From the NCBI GenBank assembly GCA_018062765.1, contig JAGORR010000001.1, forward strand, positions 506,485 through 570,484: DNA of 64,000 nt, in the 5' to 3' direction. The notes under the pieces are model-generated. The model made no database searches, was not told the origin of the DNA, and saw nothing but the letters and a program-made list of their open reading frames with translations. This DNA comes from Minisyncoccota bacterium. GTDB lineage: Bacteria; Patescibacteriota; Minisyncoccia; Phycocordibacterales; Phycocordibacteraceae. Each line of letters starts with the position of its first letter. The stretch's first letter is position 1. Of the stretch, positions 28,214 to 51,480 are shown one piece after another. The position numbers and the translations under genes are program-made.

Positions 28214-28648
28214 CTAGAGCGCACCTCGCTCGCCCAAGGTCTCGGCGAACCGGTCCGCCTCCTTCTCGATGGTCGCGGTGTACTTCTCCCATGCGCTTTC
28301 GTCCCATACCTCGATGCGTGCCGACACGCCGGCCACCACAGCGCGCGTGTCGAGCGATGCGAACTTCTTAAGGTAATCGGGAACAAGGATGCGTCCGGTC
28401 GAATCTACTTCCGCTTCAGATGCTCCTGCGAGCATGAGGCGCGAAAGACCGCGTCCCGCCGCGCCTCCGGTCGCGTGCGCTGCAATCTTCCTGGCCTCTG
28501 CTTCCCATGTCTTCTTGGGGTAAACGAACAGACATGAGTCGAGTCCACGCGTCACTACAACTGCCCGTCCGAGTTCCTTGCGGAACTTAGCAGGAAGCGA
28601 GATGCGATTCTTCGCATCGAACGTGTGACGGTACTCTCCGATGAACAT
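28214..28648 (-). CDS. mraZ: transcriptional regulator MraZ
   Basis: two SpoVT/AbrB-like repeats (FDAKNRISLPAKFR...; TGRILVPDYL...). Confidence 0.9.
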   Translation of the reverse strand: MFIGEYRHTFDAKNRISLPAKFRKELGRAVVVTRGLDSCLFVYPKKTWEAEARKIAAHATGGAAGRGLSRLMLAGASEAEVDSTGRILVPDYLKKFASLDTRAVVAGVSARIEVWDESAWEKYTATIEKEADRFAETLGERGAL

Positions 28649-28694
28649 AGTGAAAAGATGGGTCGGGAGGATGAAGCGGGCTCATGAAACCGTG

Positions 28695-28745
28695 CTTACC
28701 ACTTCATCCCACCTATATGGCAGTATATGCCACAGTTTCCCACTC
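28695..28745 (-). promoter_or_regulatory. putative MraZ operator (GTGGG direct repeats at 10-nt spacing)
   Basis: minus strand reads GTGGGAAACT GTGGCATATA ... GTGGGATGAA GTGGTAAGCA upstream of mraZ. Confidence 0.4.
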
Positions 28746-28849
28746 CCCTCCCCTTATCCACACGCGGATTTGACCGCGATAAGCCCGTTCCGGTAGGATG
28801 GCGGTATGAGCAACGCGGGACGCCTTACTTGGTTTTATGCCTATGCTTG

Positions 28850-28950
28850 GGCCTTCTTTAGGAAGGTCGGGGTCCCGCTTGAGATTTCTCTCCGCCAATA
28901 GGCATCGATAGAGATCTGACGCAGGCCCCCGACCAAATCGGGGGCCGTTC
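28850..28950 (+). promoter_or_regulatory. structured RNA leader, copy 1 (candidate riboswitch/attenuator)
   Basis: P1 CCTTC/GAAGG hairpin; GGTCGGGG (28865-72) complementary to CCCCGACC (28927-34), which is also the 5' arm of terminator-style hairpin GGCCCCCGA-ccaaa-TCGGGGGCC; CU-rich/AG-rich internal hairpin. Confidence 0.5.
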
Positions 28951-29010
28951 GCTTGTAGCGATGCAACGTTCTTTCAACCGCGGCAGGAGCCGCACGAATA
29001 GGAGTTACCG

Positions 29011-29469
29011 ATGATCCAGATGGCATACCAGTATCGCTTCGTGACGAACGCGAGACACCGCCACACTGCAGCCGTGATGACGTATCTTGCGACCCTCACT
29101 GGCTGCCAGGTCGTTACCCTGACCGATTCGAGCGAGCTGCCGCGCACCTCAGATATCGCCATCGTCTTCGGCACACTCGGGATGAAACCCGGCGTCGAGG
29201 TACTCTATGGAGAACCGACCGAGCTGCGACAGCTTGGCTGCCACGACATTACGGGAGACGACCGGTCTGCGGGACAAGTCATCCTCATCCGTTCACGCAT
29301 GACTGACTTCAGTCCGTACGGGAGTTTCGAAGCGTGGATGACACACCTCCGCAAAGAGCTCGAAGTGGCCGTCCGCACAATTGGCACCAAGAAGCCAAAA
29401 CCTTCGGCCCGTTCCGGCCTTCCGCCGGATGATGGCGAGTACCGTCGTCATGCATCGACTGCCTGGTAA
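29011..29469 (+). CDS. hypothetical protein (paralog A, leader-regulated)
   Basis: 152 aa; AGGAG SD; weak similarity to the 29753 gene (FGTLGMKPGVEVLYG~FSSSTGIFKGTYLRHG; KKPKPSARSG~KKPEKPAIEWKSG). Confidence 0.55.
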   Translation: MIQMAYQYRFVTNARHRHTAAVMTYLATLTGCQVVTLTDSSELPRTSDIAIVFGTLGMKPGVEVLYGEPTELRQLGCHDITGDDRSAGQVILIRSRMTDFSPYGSFEAWMTHLRKELEVAVRTIGTKKPKPSARSGLPPDDGEYRRHASTAW

Positions 29470-29603
29470 TCTAATAGACTCTCACTGCAGCCCCTATGGG
29501 GCTGCTTTTCTTTTCCCCAGCCCGCCCAGTTGACCGGATATGCGCGAATAGGTAGGCTCTATAAGCAATGAATCAAGCGAAGATTATCGTCGTCACCCGC
29601 ATC

Positions 29604-29705
29604 GGCCTTCTTAGGAAGGTCGGGGCTTCGCTTGAGCTTTCTTTCCAGGGACACTAAAAGGAAAAGAAAGTTCACGGGAACCCCCGACCGAAAGGCCGGG
29701 GGTTC
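29604..29705 (+). promoter_or_regulatory. structured RNA leader, copy 2 (candidate riboswitch/attenuator)
   Basis: same architecture as copy 1: CCTTC-ttag-GAAGG, GGTCGGGG (29618-25), CTTTCTTTCC/GGAAAAGAAAG hairpin, CCCCCGACC-gaaa-GGCCGGGGG. Confidence 0.5.
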
Positions 29706-29752
29706 CGCTCGTTATGCAGAGTGCAAACGGGCAATCATAAAGGGAGCGAGTC

Positions 29753-30190
29753 ATGTTCTTTGTATTTAAGAGTGATGAGGTTGCGAACCTCGCAGGAAAG
29801 GCGCTCGAGAGAATGACGGTGCCCGTCGCCGTCCTTTCCGGAGCTCTTGAACGGTGTCCGCAGGCAGGCATCCCGATATTCTCGAGCTCGACCGGCATCT
29901 TCAAGGGGACCTACTTGAGGCACGGAACGATAGAAAGCCTCAGGAGCCGAGGTATCCGTATACCAGCATGGGCCGAGGGCGCGAAGTACGGTATCGCACT
30001 CAAACGTCTGGAGCCGGTGGTCTGTCAGCATGACCGCCGCTTCAGTCGCGCAGTCCTATCGGTAGACTGCGTCAGGCTCATGACCCCGCATGCGAAGAAA
30101 CCGGAGAAGCCGGCCATCGAATGGAAAAGCGGCTACTTCGCACGCATGCGCCAGGGCCGGCTCTCACGCCTCGAAACGATGGGGCTCTAA
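29753..30190 (+). CDS. hypothetical protein (paralog B, leader-regulated)
   Basis: 145 aa; AGGGAG SD; see paralog A. Confidence 0.55.
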   Translation: MFFVFKSDEVANLAGKALERMTVPVAVLSGALERCPQAGIPIFSSSTGIFKGTYLRHGTIESLRSRGIRIPAWAEGAKYGIALKRLEPVVCQHDRRFSRAVLSVDCVRLMTPHAKKPEKPAIEWKSGYFARMRQGRLSRLETMGL

Positions 30191-30196
30191 ATTGCC

Positions 30197-30229
30197 AAAG
30201 GCGACCGTAAGGTCGCCTTTTCGCTTTTA
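30197..30229. terminator. bidirectional terminator
   Basis: aaaggcgacc-gtaa-ggtcgccttt then tcgctttta. Confidence 0.8.
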
Positions 30230-31789
30230 CGCGCTCGCCTCTTTAAGGCGCGCCGAGACCATCTCAGGCGGCAGCACTGATAGAAACCATCCTGCCTTAG
30301 GCCCTGAATCACGGTTAAGGAATATGCGGTAAATCGCTGAGAAAAGCGCCTTGGGCTCTATCGGCACCTCATTCCGGAGCTCAAACAGTTTCGCTTGCAC
30401 TTCCTCCCCCGTATGCGGCGTCTGCATGAAGTCTGCAAGCGCGGAGAGCGCCTTCTTCTGCTCATCCGAGAATGTAAGCCCCTCAGGAACCGTGTTTTGC
30501 AGAACGTACTTGTGACTATCGGGCGCATACGTAGAGAGCCAGAAACGCGCGTACGCGGCGCGCTCACCGAGCACCCGCTTCTCTTCTTCCGTAAGTGGGC
30601 TTTCCTTCACGCGCTCGGCCTCTGCTTCAAGCGAGAGGTGCGGCATCTGCACTATGAATGCGACCTGAGAAAAGCGCAGCTGCCAGGGAGCGGCGTATCC
30701 GGTTCCAGGAAGTTGCGAAACCGCGTAGATGCGTGCAAAGTCATCCGCCTTCCCGTCCCGCACACCGTCCGCAAGGTCGTCGTACCAGTCGAAGGTGCGC
30801 GGTACCGAGTCACCAGAAGGGTCGATGTCTATCTGTTGATTGATATCTTTCCCGAGCATGACGAGGCGGAACACCGTGGGCGGGAAGAGCTCGCTCATCT
30901 CCTTAGCGCTTGATCCACGACCCTTCGACGAAGACATCTTCTTACCGCCCACCAAGAAGAACTCGTACGGGATGTCGTAGGGCGACGGTAAATCAAACAG
31001 CTCCTTAGCGATGTGATTTGAGACATCGCGTGCGCCGCCTTTGGTGGAGTGGTCCTTTCCTGCGCCCTCGATATCAACGCCGCGCGCCGCCCACTTCGCC
31101 GCCCAGTCAACTTTCCAAAATAGTTTTGCAGCGCCTTTCCACGGCGCAACGCGTCCCTTGGCGCCGCACGGCACCGACCCATCGGGACCTTTGTCGCACG
31201 TGTAGCCGACCGTCTCACCATCAAAATCATAGGCGCGCGTTGTCATCACCTTCCCGCAGGTCTCACAAATAACAGATATCGGAAGCCACGAATCATCCTT
31301 CGTCGAACCGGAGACTTCTTTCATAATGCGTCTGACGTCAGCAGCGCGCGTAAGCGCGATACGGATGTACTTATCCATGGCGCCGGAGCGGTAGAGCTCG
31401 GTCGCGCGATAGTAGGTTGGTTTAAAACCGGCCTTCTCGTGCACCGATACGAACTCGGCAGCGAAGTATTCAGCATAGCTATCAAATCCTGGCTCAGGAG
31501 ACGGGACCGCGTACAACGGCTTTCCGAGATGCTCTCGGAACACTGCCTCATCGAGGTATCCGGGAACCGTGTCGAACGGATCGATATCGTTGAGTTCGTA
31601 CTGATACTCATTCGCAATACCTTTCGCGGTAAGAATCTCCGAGACGAGACCGTGTATCGCAACCCCGCGCATGGAACCAATATGGACCCTGCCGGACATC
31701 GTTTTCTCGTCGCGAATAACGAACTTCTTACCGTCTCGCGGGGTAAGGTCGGCAATCTCCTTGGCTATCCTGTCTGCCCAAAACATCAC
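30227..31789 (-). CDS. lysK: class I-type lysyl-tRNA synthetase (LysK-like)
   Basis: 520 aa; SGRVHIGSMRG (HIGH-like) and GGKKMSSSKG (KMSKS) in a class I LysRS-like arrangement; ArgRS-like alternatives not excluded. Confidence 0.55.
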   Translation of the reverse strand: MMFWADRIAKEIADLTPRDGKKFVIRDEKTMSGRVHIGSMRGVAIHGLVSEILTAKGIANEYQYELNDIDPFDTVPGYLDEAVFREHLGKPLYAVPSPEPGFDSYAEYFAAEFVSVHEKAGFKPTYYRATELYRSGAMDKYIRIALTRAADVRRIMKEVSGSTKDDSWLPISVICETCGKVMTTRAYDFDGETVGYTCDKGPDGSVPCGAKGRVAPWKGAAKLFWKVDWAAKWAARGVDIEGAGKDHSTKGGARDVSNHIAKELFDLPSPYDIPYEFFLVGGKKMSSSKGRGSSAKEMSELFPPTVFRLVMLGKDINQQIDIDPSGDSVPRTFDWYDDLADGVRDGKADDFARIYAVSQLPGTGYAAPWQLRFSQVAFIVQMPHLSLEAEAERVKESPLTEEEKRVLGERAAYARFWLSTYAPDSHKYVLQNTVPEGLTFSDEQKKALSALADFMQTPHTGEEVQAKLFELRNEVPIEPKALFSAIYRIFLNRDSGPKAGWFLSVLPPEMVSARLKEASA

Positions 31790-31970: not shown

Positions 31971-32441
31971 TTAGACTACCTTCTCTATCGTATAGGTCTG
32001 TTTACCGTTAGGAGTCTCAAACGTGAAGGTCTCCCCCTTCTTCTTTCCCATAAGTGCGGCGCCAAGTGGCGATACATGGGAGAGCTTCCTCTCGCGCATA
32101 TCAGCTTCCTCGCTACCGACAATCATGTACTCATGCGCGTCAGGCGCACCCTCTTTCTTGATGTGGACCTTCGAGCCAAAACCTACTACGTCCTTCTTCT
32201 TGTTATCGCTCTGTATCTTCGCGTGCTTCACCACATCCTCGAGCTTTCTGATGCGCTCTTCAGTTGCAGCTTGGAGTTCCCGCGCTTCTTGGTATTCAGC
32301 GTTCTCAGAAAGGTCTCCGAGTGAACGGGCATACTCAAGATTCTTCGCGATCTCGGTGCGTCGTACGGTCTTGAGGTTCTCGAGCTCCTTGACTATCTCG
32401 TCGAATTTTTCCTGCGAGACTATCGTTTCCGTTTCGGTCAT
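31971..32441 (-). CDS. greA: transcription elongation factor GreA
   Basis: 156 aa from MTETETIVSQEKFDEIVKELE; coiled-coil N-domain and FKBP-like C-domain; AAGGAA SD. Confidence 0.85.
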   Translation of the reverse strand: MTETETIVSQEKFDEIVKELENLKTVRRTEIAKNLEYARSLGDLSENAEYQEARELQAATEERIRKLEDVVKHAKIQSDNKKKDVVGFGSKVHIKKEGAPDAHEYMIVGSEEADMRERKLSHVSPLGAALMGKKKGETFTFETPNGKQTYTIEKVV

Positions 32442-32496
32442 TTCCTTTGCGCTGATGATATGGAGGCATTGTACGGGAAGCGTTCGCAAGCGCAAG

Positions 32497-32537
32497 GAAA
32501 AACCGCGCCCGTGAGGGGCGCGGCCTTGGTTTGTTTG
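32497..32537. terminator. bidirectional terminator
   Basis: ccgcgccc-gtgag-gggcgcgg flanked by an A-run and a T-run. Confidence 0.75.
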
Positions 32538-32545
32538 AAATCGCA

Positions 32546-32881
32546 TCAACGATTCTTCGATTCCTGGCCGTCTGTGATGCGCGACCCCAGATGAGAACCG
32601 CTCTGCTTCCCGGTAGGAACACAGCTCTGAATGAGCTTGTGCTTCGCTCGCACGAACGCATCTGGATACGCTTTTGCCATAGTGTCGAGCTCGGCAGTAG
32701 TGACTCCGAGCCTTAACATCGCATCGGGTACGTCTAAGCCTAGACGTTTATCATGCATGAGCATGAAAGCGAGCAAGGCATCAGATCGCCGCTCGTCATC
32801 AGCGGATGAACTGCGCAGGACGAGCAGATGCAAGGCGCAGGCTGAGATCCACTCCTCTGCATTGGGCATTGCTTCCGTCAT
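32546..32881 (-). CDS. hypothetical protein
   Basis: 111 aa; no recognised domain. Confidence 0.45.
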   Translation of the reverse strand: MTEAMPNAEEWISACALHLLVLRSSSADDERRSDALLAFMLMHDKRLGLDVPDAMLRLGVTTAELDTMAKAYPDAFVRAKHKLIQSCVPTGKQSGSHLGSRITDGQESKNR

Positions 32882-51408: not shown

Positions 51409-51480
51409 TCCGCGATAGCTCAATGGTAGAGCAGCGCCCTGTTAAGGCGTTGGTTGTAGGTTCGAGTCCTACTCGCGGAG
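51409..51480 (+). tRNA. tRNA-Asn (anticodon GTT)
   Basis: manual cloverleaf: acceptor tccgcga/tcgcgga, D arm gctc-aatggta-gagc, anticodon stem gcgcc/ggcgt with loop cTGTTaa, T arm gtagg-ttcgagt-cctac; CCA not encoded. Confidence 0.85.

Follow-up and report, generated by a model that had tools for sequence, protein, structure and literature searches.

The 64,000-nucleotide stretch of contig JAGORR010000001.1 analyzed here (the window; all coordinates are positions within it) comes from a metagenome-assembled genome (MAG) of Candidatus Pacebacteria, a lineage of the candidate phyla radiation (CPR, or Patescibacteria), and carries two tandem copies of a structured RNA element, each ahead of an open reading frame (ORF) for a protein of about 150 amino acids (aa). 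These elements look like members of a new family of attenuators in Paceibacteria, not yet catalogued, in which a leaderless small ORF (sORF) overlaps the RNA structure. Our favored explanation, to which we give about an even chance, is that each element would be a leader-peptide (ribosome-sensing) attenuator on a leaderless mRNA. The original prediction, made from the letters of the window, had described a duplicated RNA leader with alternative anti-terminator and terminator pairing ahead of two paralogous genes. The sequence features that it listed are all present where it had placed them, and its conserved, structured RNA on the + strand is borne out by folding (z = -3.6 and -5.6 for the two copies, with 0 of 200 shuffled sequences equally stable) and by covariation in 57 homologs. 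The term "RNA leader" holds only in part, since it overlooked that the 5' two-thirds of the element is an ORF with its own promoter.

Two tandem units with a common architecture

The features of the two units, all on the + strand, are listed below; segments 1 to 4 are given in their order along the RNA and the helices between them are written 1:2, 2:3, and 3:4.

Unit 1
28770-28799: predicted promoter, with -35 TTGACC at 28770-28775, an 18-nt spacer, and -10 TAGGAT at 28794-28799; 6 nt from the -10 to the ATG
28806-28901: sORF1, 31 codons plus TAG, MSNAGRLTWFYAYAWAFFRKVGVPLEISLRQ; predicted to be leaderless or nearly so; unannotated
28815-28821: segment 1, GCGGGAC, pairing with GUCCCGC at 28872-28878 (helix P0, that is 1:2)
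28850-28868: H1, the "5' hairpin" of the original prediction, GGCCUUCU-UUA-GGAAGGUC (CCTTC-TTTA-GGAAGG at 28852-28866), inside sORF1
28865-28872: GGTCGGGG, first copy
28865-28889: segment 2, GGTCGGGG TCC CGCTTGAG ATTTCT, the 5' strand of the long 2:3 hairpin; encodes VGVPLEIS
28882-28917: internal hairpin P2, with the sORF1 stop (28899-28901) in its loop
28918-28934: segment 3, GACGCAGGCCCCCGACC, partner of segment 2 or segment 4
28924-28946: 3' hairpin P3 (3:4), -19 kcal/mol, followed by GUUCGCUUGUAG without a U-tract
28949-28961: small hairpin P4, UCGC-UUGUA-GCGA
28970-28977: UCUUUCAA, conserved motif
29011-29469: ORF1 (NCBI KBC38_03130), 152 aa, with Shine-Dalgarno (SD) sequence AGGAG at 29000-29004; divergent cargo-family member

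Unit 2
29530-29558: predicted promoter, with -35 TTGACC at 29530-29535, a 17-nt spacer, and -10 TAGGCT at 29553-29558; 9 nt from the -10 to the ATG
29568-29657: sORF2, 29 codons plus TAA, MNQAKIIVVTRIGLLRKVGASLELSFQGH; unannotated
29573-29582: segment 1, UCAAGCGAAG, pairing with CUUCGCUUGA at 29626-29635 (P0)
29606-29619: "5' hairpin", CCTTC-TTA-GGAAGG
29618-29625: GGTCGGGG, second copy
29618-29644: segment 2, GGTCGGGG CTT CGCTTGAG CTTTCTTT
29633-29674: internal hairpin P2, with the sORF2 stop (29655-29657) in its loop
29677-29706: 3' hairpin P3, -24 kcal/mol; its 5' arm is segment 3 and includes CCCCGACC at 29682-29689
29753-30190: ORF2, 145 aa, with SD AAGGGAG at 29740-29746; cargo-family member

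The two units are 74% identical across ~240 aligned columns, promoter included, which agrees with the duplicated unit that had been proposed, and a profile hidden Markov model of the element matched only these two copies in the whole window. The H1 hairpin of unit 1 sequesters GGUC of the core; across the family this "5' hairpin" is only weakly conserved. An Rfam search of the window at the gathering threshold found no family that matches the element; the only match at that score in the window was a tRNA at 51409-51480. Matches obtained at permissive thresholds were generic microRNA models that simply fit a long hairpin, and we rejected them.

A predicted leaderless small ORF fills most of the conserved leader

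To examine the element as a family, we assembled 57 distinct cassette sequences from Paceibacteria genomes and metagenomes (individual loci are given as L numbers). Every copy is preceded by a promoter, and its layout is the same in all 56 homologs with enough upstream sequence: the -35 element is TTGACN in 43 of the 56, the spacer is 16-18 nt, the -10 element is TAnnnT, and an ATG or GTG follows the -10 at 6-11 nt (mode 9). Since this leaves no room for an SD sequence between the -10 and the start, the sORF mRNA is predicted to be leaderless or nearly so. The sORF is 26-36 codons long across the family; it takes in the "5' hairpin", GGTCGGGG, CGCTTGAG, and the 5' strand of the internal hairpin (P2) and ends at a stop codon in the P2 loop, 9-17 codons past the core. 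In 57/57 sequences an in-frame ATG or GTG is found 17-25 codons ahead of the core, and the start-to-core distance takes only the values 51, 54, 57, 60, 63, or 75 nt; the starts were picked in frame, which makes these multiples of three by construction, and the informative part is that a start lies 6-11 nt past the -10 in every sequence.

We regard the sORF as coding because frame 0 is open in all 57 sequences (frames 1 and 2 contain stops in 49 and 57, respectively), because its variable middle shows strong codon periodicity (T at 56% of second positions; C at 51% and A at 8% of third positions), and because the ratio of non-synonymous to synonymous polymorphism (pN/pS) is 0.30 in the part outside the helices (18 close pairs). 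These comparisons indicate that the sORF is under coding constraint, with its start codon at the predicted 5' end of the leader. The stop codons of the 57 sORFs are TAA in 34 and TAG in 23, with no TGA. Public annotations include a few of the family sORFs as unnamed genes but neither of the two in the window, and the sORF peptides match no family in Pfam or NCBIfam.

The encoded peptides are hydrophobic. Outside the helices, Leu, Phe, Val, Ile, Tyr, and Trp make up 63% of the residues, and Asp, Glu, and Pro account for ~0.3% each; the commonest residues of the peptides are Leu (17%), Phe (13%), Val (11%), and Ile (10%). The unit 1 peptide has an aromatic cluster, WFYAYAWAFF, which is kept in orthologs, and the unit 2 peptide has an Ile/Val/Leu cluster, IIVVTRIGLL. 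The peptide may thus have a function of its own besides sensing, a point to which we return below.

Three mutually exclusive helices, each supported by covariation

In the family consensus, segment 1 comprises codons 2-5 plus the GGCC stretch just ahead of the core, segment 2 is GGUCGGGG-NNN-CGCUUGAG-NUUUCU within the sORF, segment 3 is ...UUGAA-NCGAG-CCCCCGACC beyond the stop codon, and segment 4, GGNCGGGGG..., is a near copy of segment 2. We read this as the layout of a leader-peptide attenuator because of its order: segment 1, segment 2, a stop codon in the loop, segment 3, and segment 4. Within the 5' arm of the 3' hairpin, CCCCGACC complements GGTCGGGG exactly, and the earlier claim that GGUCGGGG:CCCCGACC pairing and the 3' hairpin exclude each other is upheld, with both covarying across the 57 homologs. 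Segments 2 and 3 in fact form one long hairpin (GGUCGGGG-UUUCG-CUUGAG-GUUUCU with AGAAAC-UUGAA-UCGAG-CCCCCGACC), which takes in both the "anti-terminator" and the internal hairpin described before.

The 2:3 pairing was evaluated on a MAFFT alignment of 58 rows (the 57 cassette sequences and one false row, L106), where 93.2% of cells are paired and both sides change in 9 of 22 pairs. There are 49 cells changed on both sides against 11.3 in shuffles (0/500 reach this number). Sliding the partner columns gives covariation scores of 0.05-0.10, compared with 0.187 for the pairing itself. Because of the relatedness of the sequences, shuffle statistics overstate the significance here and below, and the slid controls are the fairer ones. 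For the 3' hairpin (3:4), both sides change in 10 of 13 pairs, giving 75 such cells against 24.9 in shuffles and a score of 0.343 against 0.07-0.16 for slid columns. The many G.U pairs fix the transcribed strand.

The third helix, 1:2, at the 5' end of the element, had been missed, leaving the original description of the structure incomplete. It joins CUCAAGCG at the 5' end to CGCUUGAG inside the core, CUCAAGCGA of codons 2-5 pairing with UCGCUUGAG of the core, and takes the form GCGGGAC/GUCCCGC in unit 1 and UCAAGCGAAG/CUUCGCUUGA in unit 2. Compensated variants occur as AUCAAGC/GCUUGAU (L037, L060, L097, L098), CAGGCG/CGCCUG (L039), UUAAGCG/CGCUUAA (L053), and CUCACGCG/CGCGUGAG (L095). The full-length MAFFT alignment misaligned this helix owing to a spacer of variable length, and we therefore tested it on a synthetic alignment anchored by likeness to the consensus 5' motif, not by complementarity. 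Both sides are changed in 27 cells against 12.9 in shuffles (0/500), and the duplex energy is -11.5 kcal/mol with the segment's own partner and -10.1 kcal/mol with partners from other sequences (0/2000 permutations as good). On these alignments, 1:2, 2:3, and 3:4 are mutually exclusive and each is backed by covariation.

Two sets of columns, 95/177/197 and 100/171/202, covary three ways. For example, the core reads GGUCGAGG, the middle CCUCGACC, and the 3' arm CGAGG in L075, L076, and L085, and GGUCAGGG goes with CCCUGACC in L077. These changes turn a peptide Gly into Glu or Arg, implying that selection acts on the RNA at those positions. Likewise, the segment-1 motif UCAAGCG is found in another reading frame in L030 and L053.

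Mutually exclusive, covarying helices are also what a metabolite or ion riboswitch would have, with a ligand stabilizing the 2:3 hairpin or the 1:2 helix and so deciding whether the 3' hairpin forms. The conserved non-Watson-Crick positions of the long hairpin (U.C, C.U, and G.G, CUUGAG opposite UUGAAN) could form a pocket, and the lack of a matching Rfam class would allow for a new one. However, coding together with two or three pairing partners accounts for almost all of the conserved nucleotides, the structure has no multi-helix junction and no pocket beyond these three conserved mismatches, the aptamer would have to sit within an ORF predicted to be translated from the very 5' end of the RNA, and the downstream genes hint at no metabolite. 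Of the original switch proposal, then, the covarying alternative pairings stand, while nothing points to a metabolite-binding aptamer, and we consider a riboswitch unlikely. The sensor is most likely the translating ribosome rather than a ligand, because the conserved leader is largely a predicted leaderless coding sequence of ~30 codons.

The downstream genes form a narrow, fast-evolving family

BLASTP detects no relation between ORF1 and ORF2 (E = 0.66). A profile of the downstream (cargo) family built without ORF1 nevertheless finds ORF1 (hmmsearch E = 1.2e-6; hhalign probability 94.8%), so that the two proteins, as had been suggested, are distant paralogs, detectable by profile comparison only. 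The whole unit is therefore duplicated in tandem in the window. A protein gene lies behind the cassette in 57/57 full-structure cases, and the cargo proteins, ORF2 included, are connected by BLAST into one very divergent family of 110-170 aa, of which a detectable member is present in 33/57 cassettes. Relatives are few: among 5.8 billion proteins, ORF1 has three and ORF2 one, and family-profile searches of the 5.8 billion proteins and of 1.8 billion representatives gave six matches each. ORF1 is 71-80% identical between genomes whose MraZ proteins are 95-96% identical. From these comparisons the cargo family appears very narrow and fast-evolving.

In about 14 of the 57 cassettes the cargo family gives way to a short acidic ORF of 48-86 aa whose C terminus carries a W..R motif. 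This second cargo type, which replaces the ~145-aa family, is of low complexity, starts with M(T/P)D/E, ends in W..R, and is found in L001 (5198-5383), L004, L010, L018, L019, L037, L056, L064, L066, L070, L076, L088, and L092. The contigs that carry relatives of ORF1 and ORF2 (L001-L003) contain both RNA elements, and in L001 the gene behind the second element is a different, shorter ORF.

Searches of the cargo proteins against Pfam, PADLOC, and PHROGs gave nothing usable, and an AlphaFold2 model of ORF2 from seven sequences was unusable (predicted local distance difference test score, 35.6). The cargo proteins have Lys/Arg-rich C-terminal tails, and such tails would suit a leader to which a protein binds: the cargo, or some conserved RNA-binding factor, would recognize the conserved hairpin and regulate expression by feedback, as happens with ribosomal-protein leaders or in a type-V-like toxin-antitoxin pair whose protein acts on the mRNA of the peptide. 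The conserved internal-loop sequence of the RNA, as well as a weak profile match of the C-terminal half (strand, helix, and basic tail) to ArfB/RF-1 among PDB sequences (E ~0.1), is in favor of such a protein-binding leader. We rejected the ArfB/RF-1 relationship itself, however: hhalign with E. coli ArfB gave 4%, no cargo member has the GGQ motif, and there is no Pfam RF-1 match. In addition, the RNA is highly conserved whereas the cargo diverges very fast and can be replaced by an unrelated short protein, which speaks against the cargo recognizing the RNA specifically, and we hold a protein-binding leader to be improbable.

The cassette occupies one fixed site beside mraZ

We scanned 185,579 genomes, one per species, with the conserved core GGTCGGGGNNNCNNTTGAGNTNTCT and obtained 33 loci, of which ~27 are MAGs of Paceibacterota, Kaiserbacteria, or Parcubacteria with the complete architecture. 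In all of these, the element is flanked on one side by mraZ, which is divergent, and on the other by lysS and/or greA, which are convergent; the orientation is constant, and each genome has one such locus. To avoid bias from the core pattern, we also fetched 80 metagenomic loci via MraZ. A core profile located the element upstream of mraZ in 34 of these; most of the remaining loci go straight from the mraZ promoter region to a terminator and then lysS or greA.

The possibility that the element is a dispersed repeat of the REP (repetitive extragenic palindromic) or MITE (miniature inverted-repeat transposable element) kind, or a chance palindrome, had been raised with the original prediction as what would overturn it. 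Two GC-rich, palindromic copies within 800 bp, with profile matches on both strands through hairpin symmetry, might suggest a repeat, but the window has two copies only, the 185,579 genomes show one fixed locus, always beside mraZ, in one orientation, and the G.U pairs fix the strand. The element is not a dispersed repeat, because of this single locus per genome and constant orientation, but an accessory cassette at a fixed hot spot; the fixed locus and the strand-fixing G.U pairs refute the repeat explanation, whose probability we consider negligible. We found no description of the element for CPR bacteria in the literature.

The neighboring genes in the window are the following.

28214-28648, - strand: mraZ, flanking both units on one side
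30227-31789, - strand: class I lysS-like (lysyl-tRNA synthetase) gene, convergent to the cassette
31971-32549: greA, beyond the lysS-like gene and convergent to the cassette

Some related genomes have no lysS separating the cassette from greA. A perfect DnaA-box consensus, TTATCCACA, lies at 28752-28760, past the mraZ promoter region and ahead of the unit 1 promoter, and TTATCCACA or TTATCCCCA occupies the equivalent position in nearly every mraZ-anchored locus, whether or not the cassette is present. Upstream of mraZ, at about 28700-28750 on the mraZ strand, there are GTGGG-type direct repeats (the + strand reads CCACTTCATCCCAC...ATATGCCAC...TTTCCCAC); they are kept in all related loci and, judged by sequence, look like MraZ operator boxes. 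The YCUUUCA(C/A) motif, at 28970-28977 in the window and at the equivalent spot in L004-L116, stands 20-50 nt past the 3' hairpin and ahead of the cargo SD, is also present in the cargo-only loci L048 and L080 right after their own -10, and is missing from unit 2. YCUUUCA has 10 matches in the window where 6.4 are expected, which is no enrichment, and we rejected it as a general genomic signal.

A proposed model in which the ribosome selects the RNA fold

Each unit would be one transcription unit, in which a sigma-70-type promoter starts the mRNA at or a few bases from an AUG that opens a 29-31 codon ORF for a hydrophobic peptide. Naked RNA would favor 1:2 together with 3:4, and the strong 3' hairpin would form. 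A ribosome that reaches the stop codon in the P2 loop would cover segment 2, again leaving 3:4, whereas a ribosome held early in the ORF would mask segment 1 and free segment 2, which could then capture segment 3 before segment 4 is made, so that no 3' hairpin forms. The 3' hairpin would limit expression of the ~150-aa downstream gene, by termination or by a closed downstream leader, and 2:3 would relieve this limit. The signal would be the availability of something that translation of the hydrophobic stretch requires; this stretch is rich in aromatic residues in unit 1 and in Ile, Val, and Leu in unit 2. In short, we infer that ribosome position selects the fold, that the downstream gene is off when the 3' hairpin forms, and that translation supply is the signal.

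Minimum-energy folds computed for the 57 RNAs agree with several of these steps. With nothing masked, 1:2 and 3:4 form together in 38/57, both window copies included, and 2:3 forms in 15/57; with the middle of the ORF masked, as a model of a stalled ribosome, 2:3 forms in 28/57; and with a ribosome modeled at the stop codon, 3:4 forms in 46/57. The 3:4 hairpin is strong, with a family mean of -25.8 kcal/mol.

The switch appears to be tied to the downstream gene, because no other promoter was found that could serve it and because the alternative pairing is lost where the gene is absent. In a consensus promoter scan of 28500-30400, no further promoter-like site was detected between the 3' hairpins and ORF1 or ORF2, and none on the opposite strand, although atypical promoters would escape such a scan. 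In L059 and L094, which have a diverged sORF and no downstream gene, the 2:3 complementarity is lost and canonical U-tract terminators are found instead.

What the 3' hairpin does is less certain. It had been described as being in the genome's typical terminator style, which is not the case: in the window the hairpins are followed by GUUCGCUUGUAG and GCUCGUUAUGCA, where the longest run is UU, unlike the terminators behind ORF1 and ORF2, which carry T-tracts. Termination of transcription, which we infer for the model, may thus not be the output, and the off state may consist of weak termination or of a downstream leader that stays closed. In the models, the SD of the downstream gene is largely base-paired (unpaired probability 0.29 in the free RNA and 0.41 with the sORF masked); this trend is weak and we do not rely on SD occlusion.

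Several observations weigh against the attenuator. A run of at least four U within 12 nt of the 3' hairpin is present in 13/57 members and in neither window copy. The equilibrium folds usually favor 3:4 even with the ORF masked; in the trp attenuator 3:4 is likewise favored at equilibrium, and the outcome depends on the order of synthesis. The 1:2 helix is the weakest-supported of the three and is not clear in ~15/57 members, 2:3 pairing is lost in L078, synonymous GGA/GGT variants break one 2:3 pair in L042, L116, and L090, and the shuffle statistics are inflated by relatedness, as mentioned. No run of identical regulatory codons was found in the sORFs, which show a general hydrophobic bias instead. 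Finally, the membrane-helix composition of the hydrophobic stretch and its purifying selection fit a peptide with a function of its own.

This last point leads to the strongest competitor, which we find clearly less probable than the attenuator, though not remote: the sORF could be a gene for a small membrane protein, possibly type-I-toxin-like, with the 3' hairpin as its terminator or stabilizer, the cargo as a separate and exchangeable gene, and the alternative folds controlling translation of the peptide itself or the lifetime of its mRNA, as in the hok, tisB, and aapA1 mRNAs. The peptide has a 16-20-residue stretch of Leu/Phe/Val/Ile/Tyr/Trp with almost no Asp, Glu, or Pro and with the pN/pS of 0.30 given above, and the sORF and the cargo can occur apart. 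The sORF stands alone in L059 and L094, and in L059 (start ~2829, minus strand) the peptide motif GLIK..GV..EVS is kept through synonymous changes; the cargo stands alone in L043, L048, L065, L074, and L080. The cargo is moreover of at least two unrelated kinds and fast-evolving, and the cassette is in just 34 of the 80 mraZ-anchored loci and in tandem here. On the other hand, the opposite-strand scan found no promoter-like site for an antisense antitoxin RNA, 2:3 covaries and has disappeared in precisely the loci that have lost the cargo, suggesting that it takes part in read-through, and a single copy per genome at a fixed syntenic site is unlike most type I systems. The membrane peptide and the attenuator are also compatible, as one ORF can do both.

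Comparison with known attenuators and toxin mRNAs

In their logic, the nearest known systems are the enterobacterial leader-peptide transcription attenuators of amino-acid operons (trp, his, leu, thr, pheA, ilvGMEDA, ilvBN). They have, as here, four segments that can pair as 1:2, 2:3, or 3:4, a short ORF of 14-32 codons over segments 1 and 2, and an RNA that folds by default into 1:2 plus 3:4 when it is not translated. Hydrophobic residues likewise abound in the ilv and pheA leader peptides, and the ilvL peptide is ~30 residues long, like the sORFs. The aromatic cluster of unit 1 and the Ile/Val/Leu cluster of unit 2 recall the pheA and ilv leaders and would fit a membrane helix equally well. 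The present elements differ in that the ORF is predicted to be leaderless or nearly so, with its start adjoining segment 1, in that the stop codon is in the 2:3 loop rather than ahead of segment 2, and in that there is no identical-codon run, 3:4 mostly lacks a U-tract, and the regulated genes are not biosynthetic. Members of this CPR lineage are generally described as lacking amino-acid biosynthesis.

Type I toxin mRNAs (hok, tisB, zorO, aapA1) resemble the cassette in their small hydrophobic peptide, in 5' pairing that hides the start, and in alternative folds, and tandem duplication occurs among them as well. They differ from it in that the scan found no antisense promoter here, the synteny is fixed, and a protein gene follows in every one of the full-structure cassettes.

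The predicted leaderless first cistron also brings the element close to a type of attenuator described in mycobacteria, which is built on leaderless polycysteine sORFs (Canestrari et al., bioRxiv 10.1101/834739) and in which stalled ribosomes block structures that hide the next ribosome-binding site. Both systems have an unannotated sORF, leaderless there and predicted to be so here, as the first cistron, and ribosome position remodels the downstream mRNA and sets expression of the next gene there, as is proposed here. The mycobacterial signal is described as consecutive Cys codons and the output as release of the ribosome-binding site, whereas here there is no codon run and SD occlusion is weakly suggested.

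Implications for Patescibacteria

Patescibacteria are mostly uncultured and have very small genomes. To our knowledge, almost nothing has been reported on their gene regulation and few regulatory RNAs have been described. As a speculation that we would rate as a long shot, the cassette might be a CPR-specific sensor of translation status, in which ribosome progress through a hydrophobic leaderless mini-ORF gates lineage-specific, basic-tailed proteins that act on ribosomes or RNA during starvation of host-dependent cells; unit 1 would be tuned to aromatic and unit 2 to branched-chain amino acids, and the peptide would be both sensor and membrane product.

The element combines a well-supported structured RNA that has no Rfam match with an unannotated sORF, is conserved in a clade, and appears to reuse the logic of attenuation on a leaderless mRNA. 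For annotation, it would add two missing genes in the window and a new RNA/sORF family, and it draws attention to a fast-evolving cargo family located in a hot spot next to the cell-division cluster. The cassette would also offer a clonable system for ribosome-mediated attenuation and leaderless initiation in CPR bacteria.

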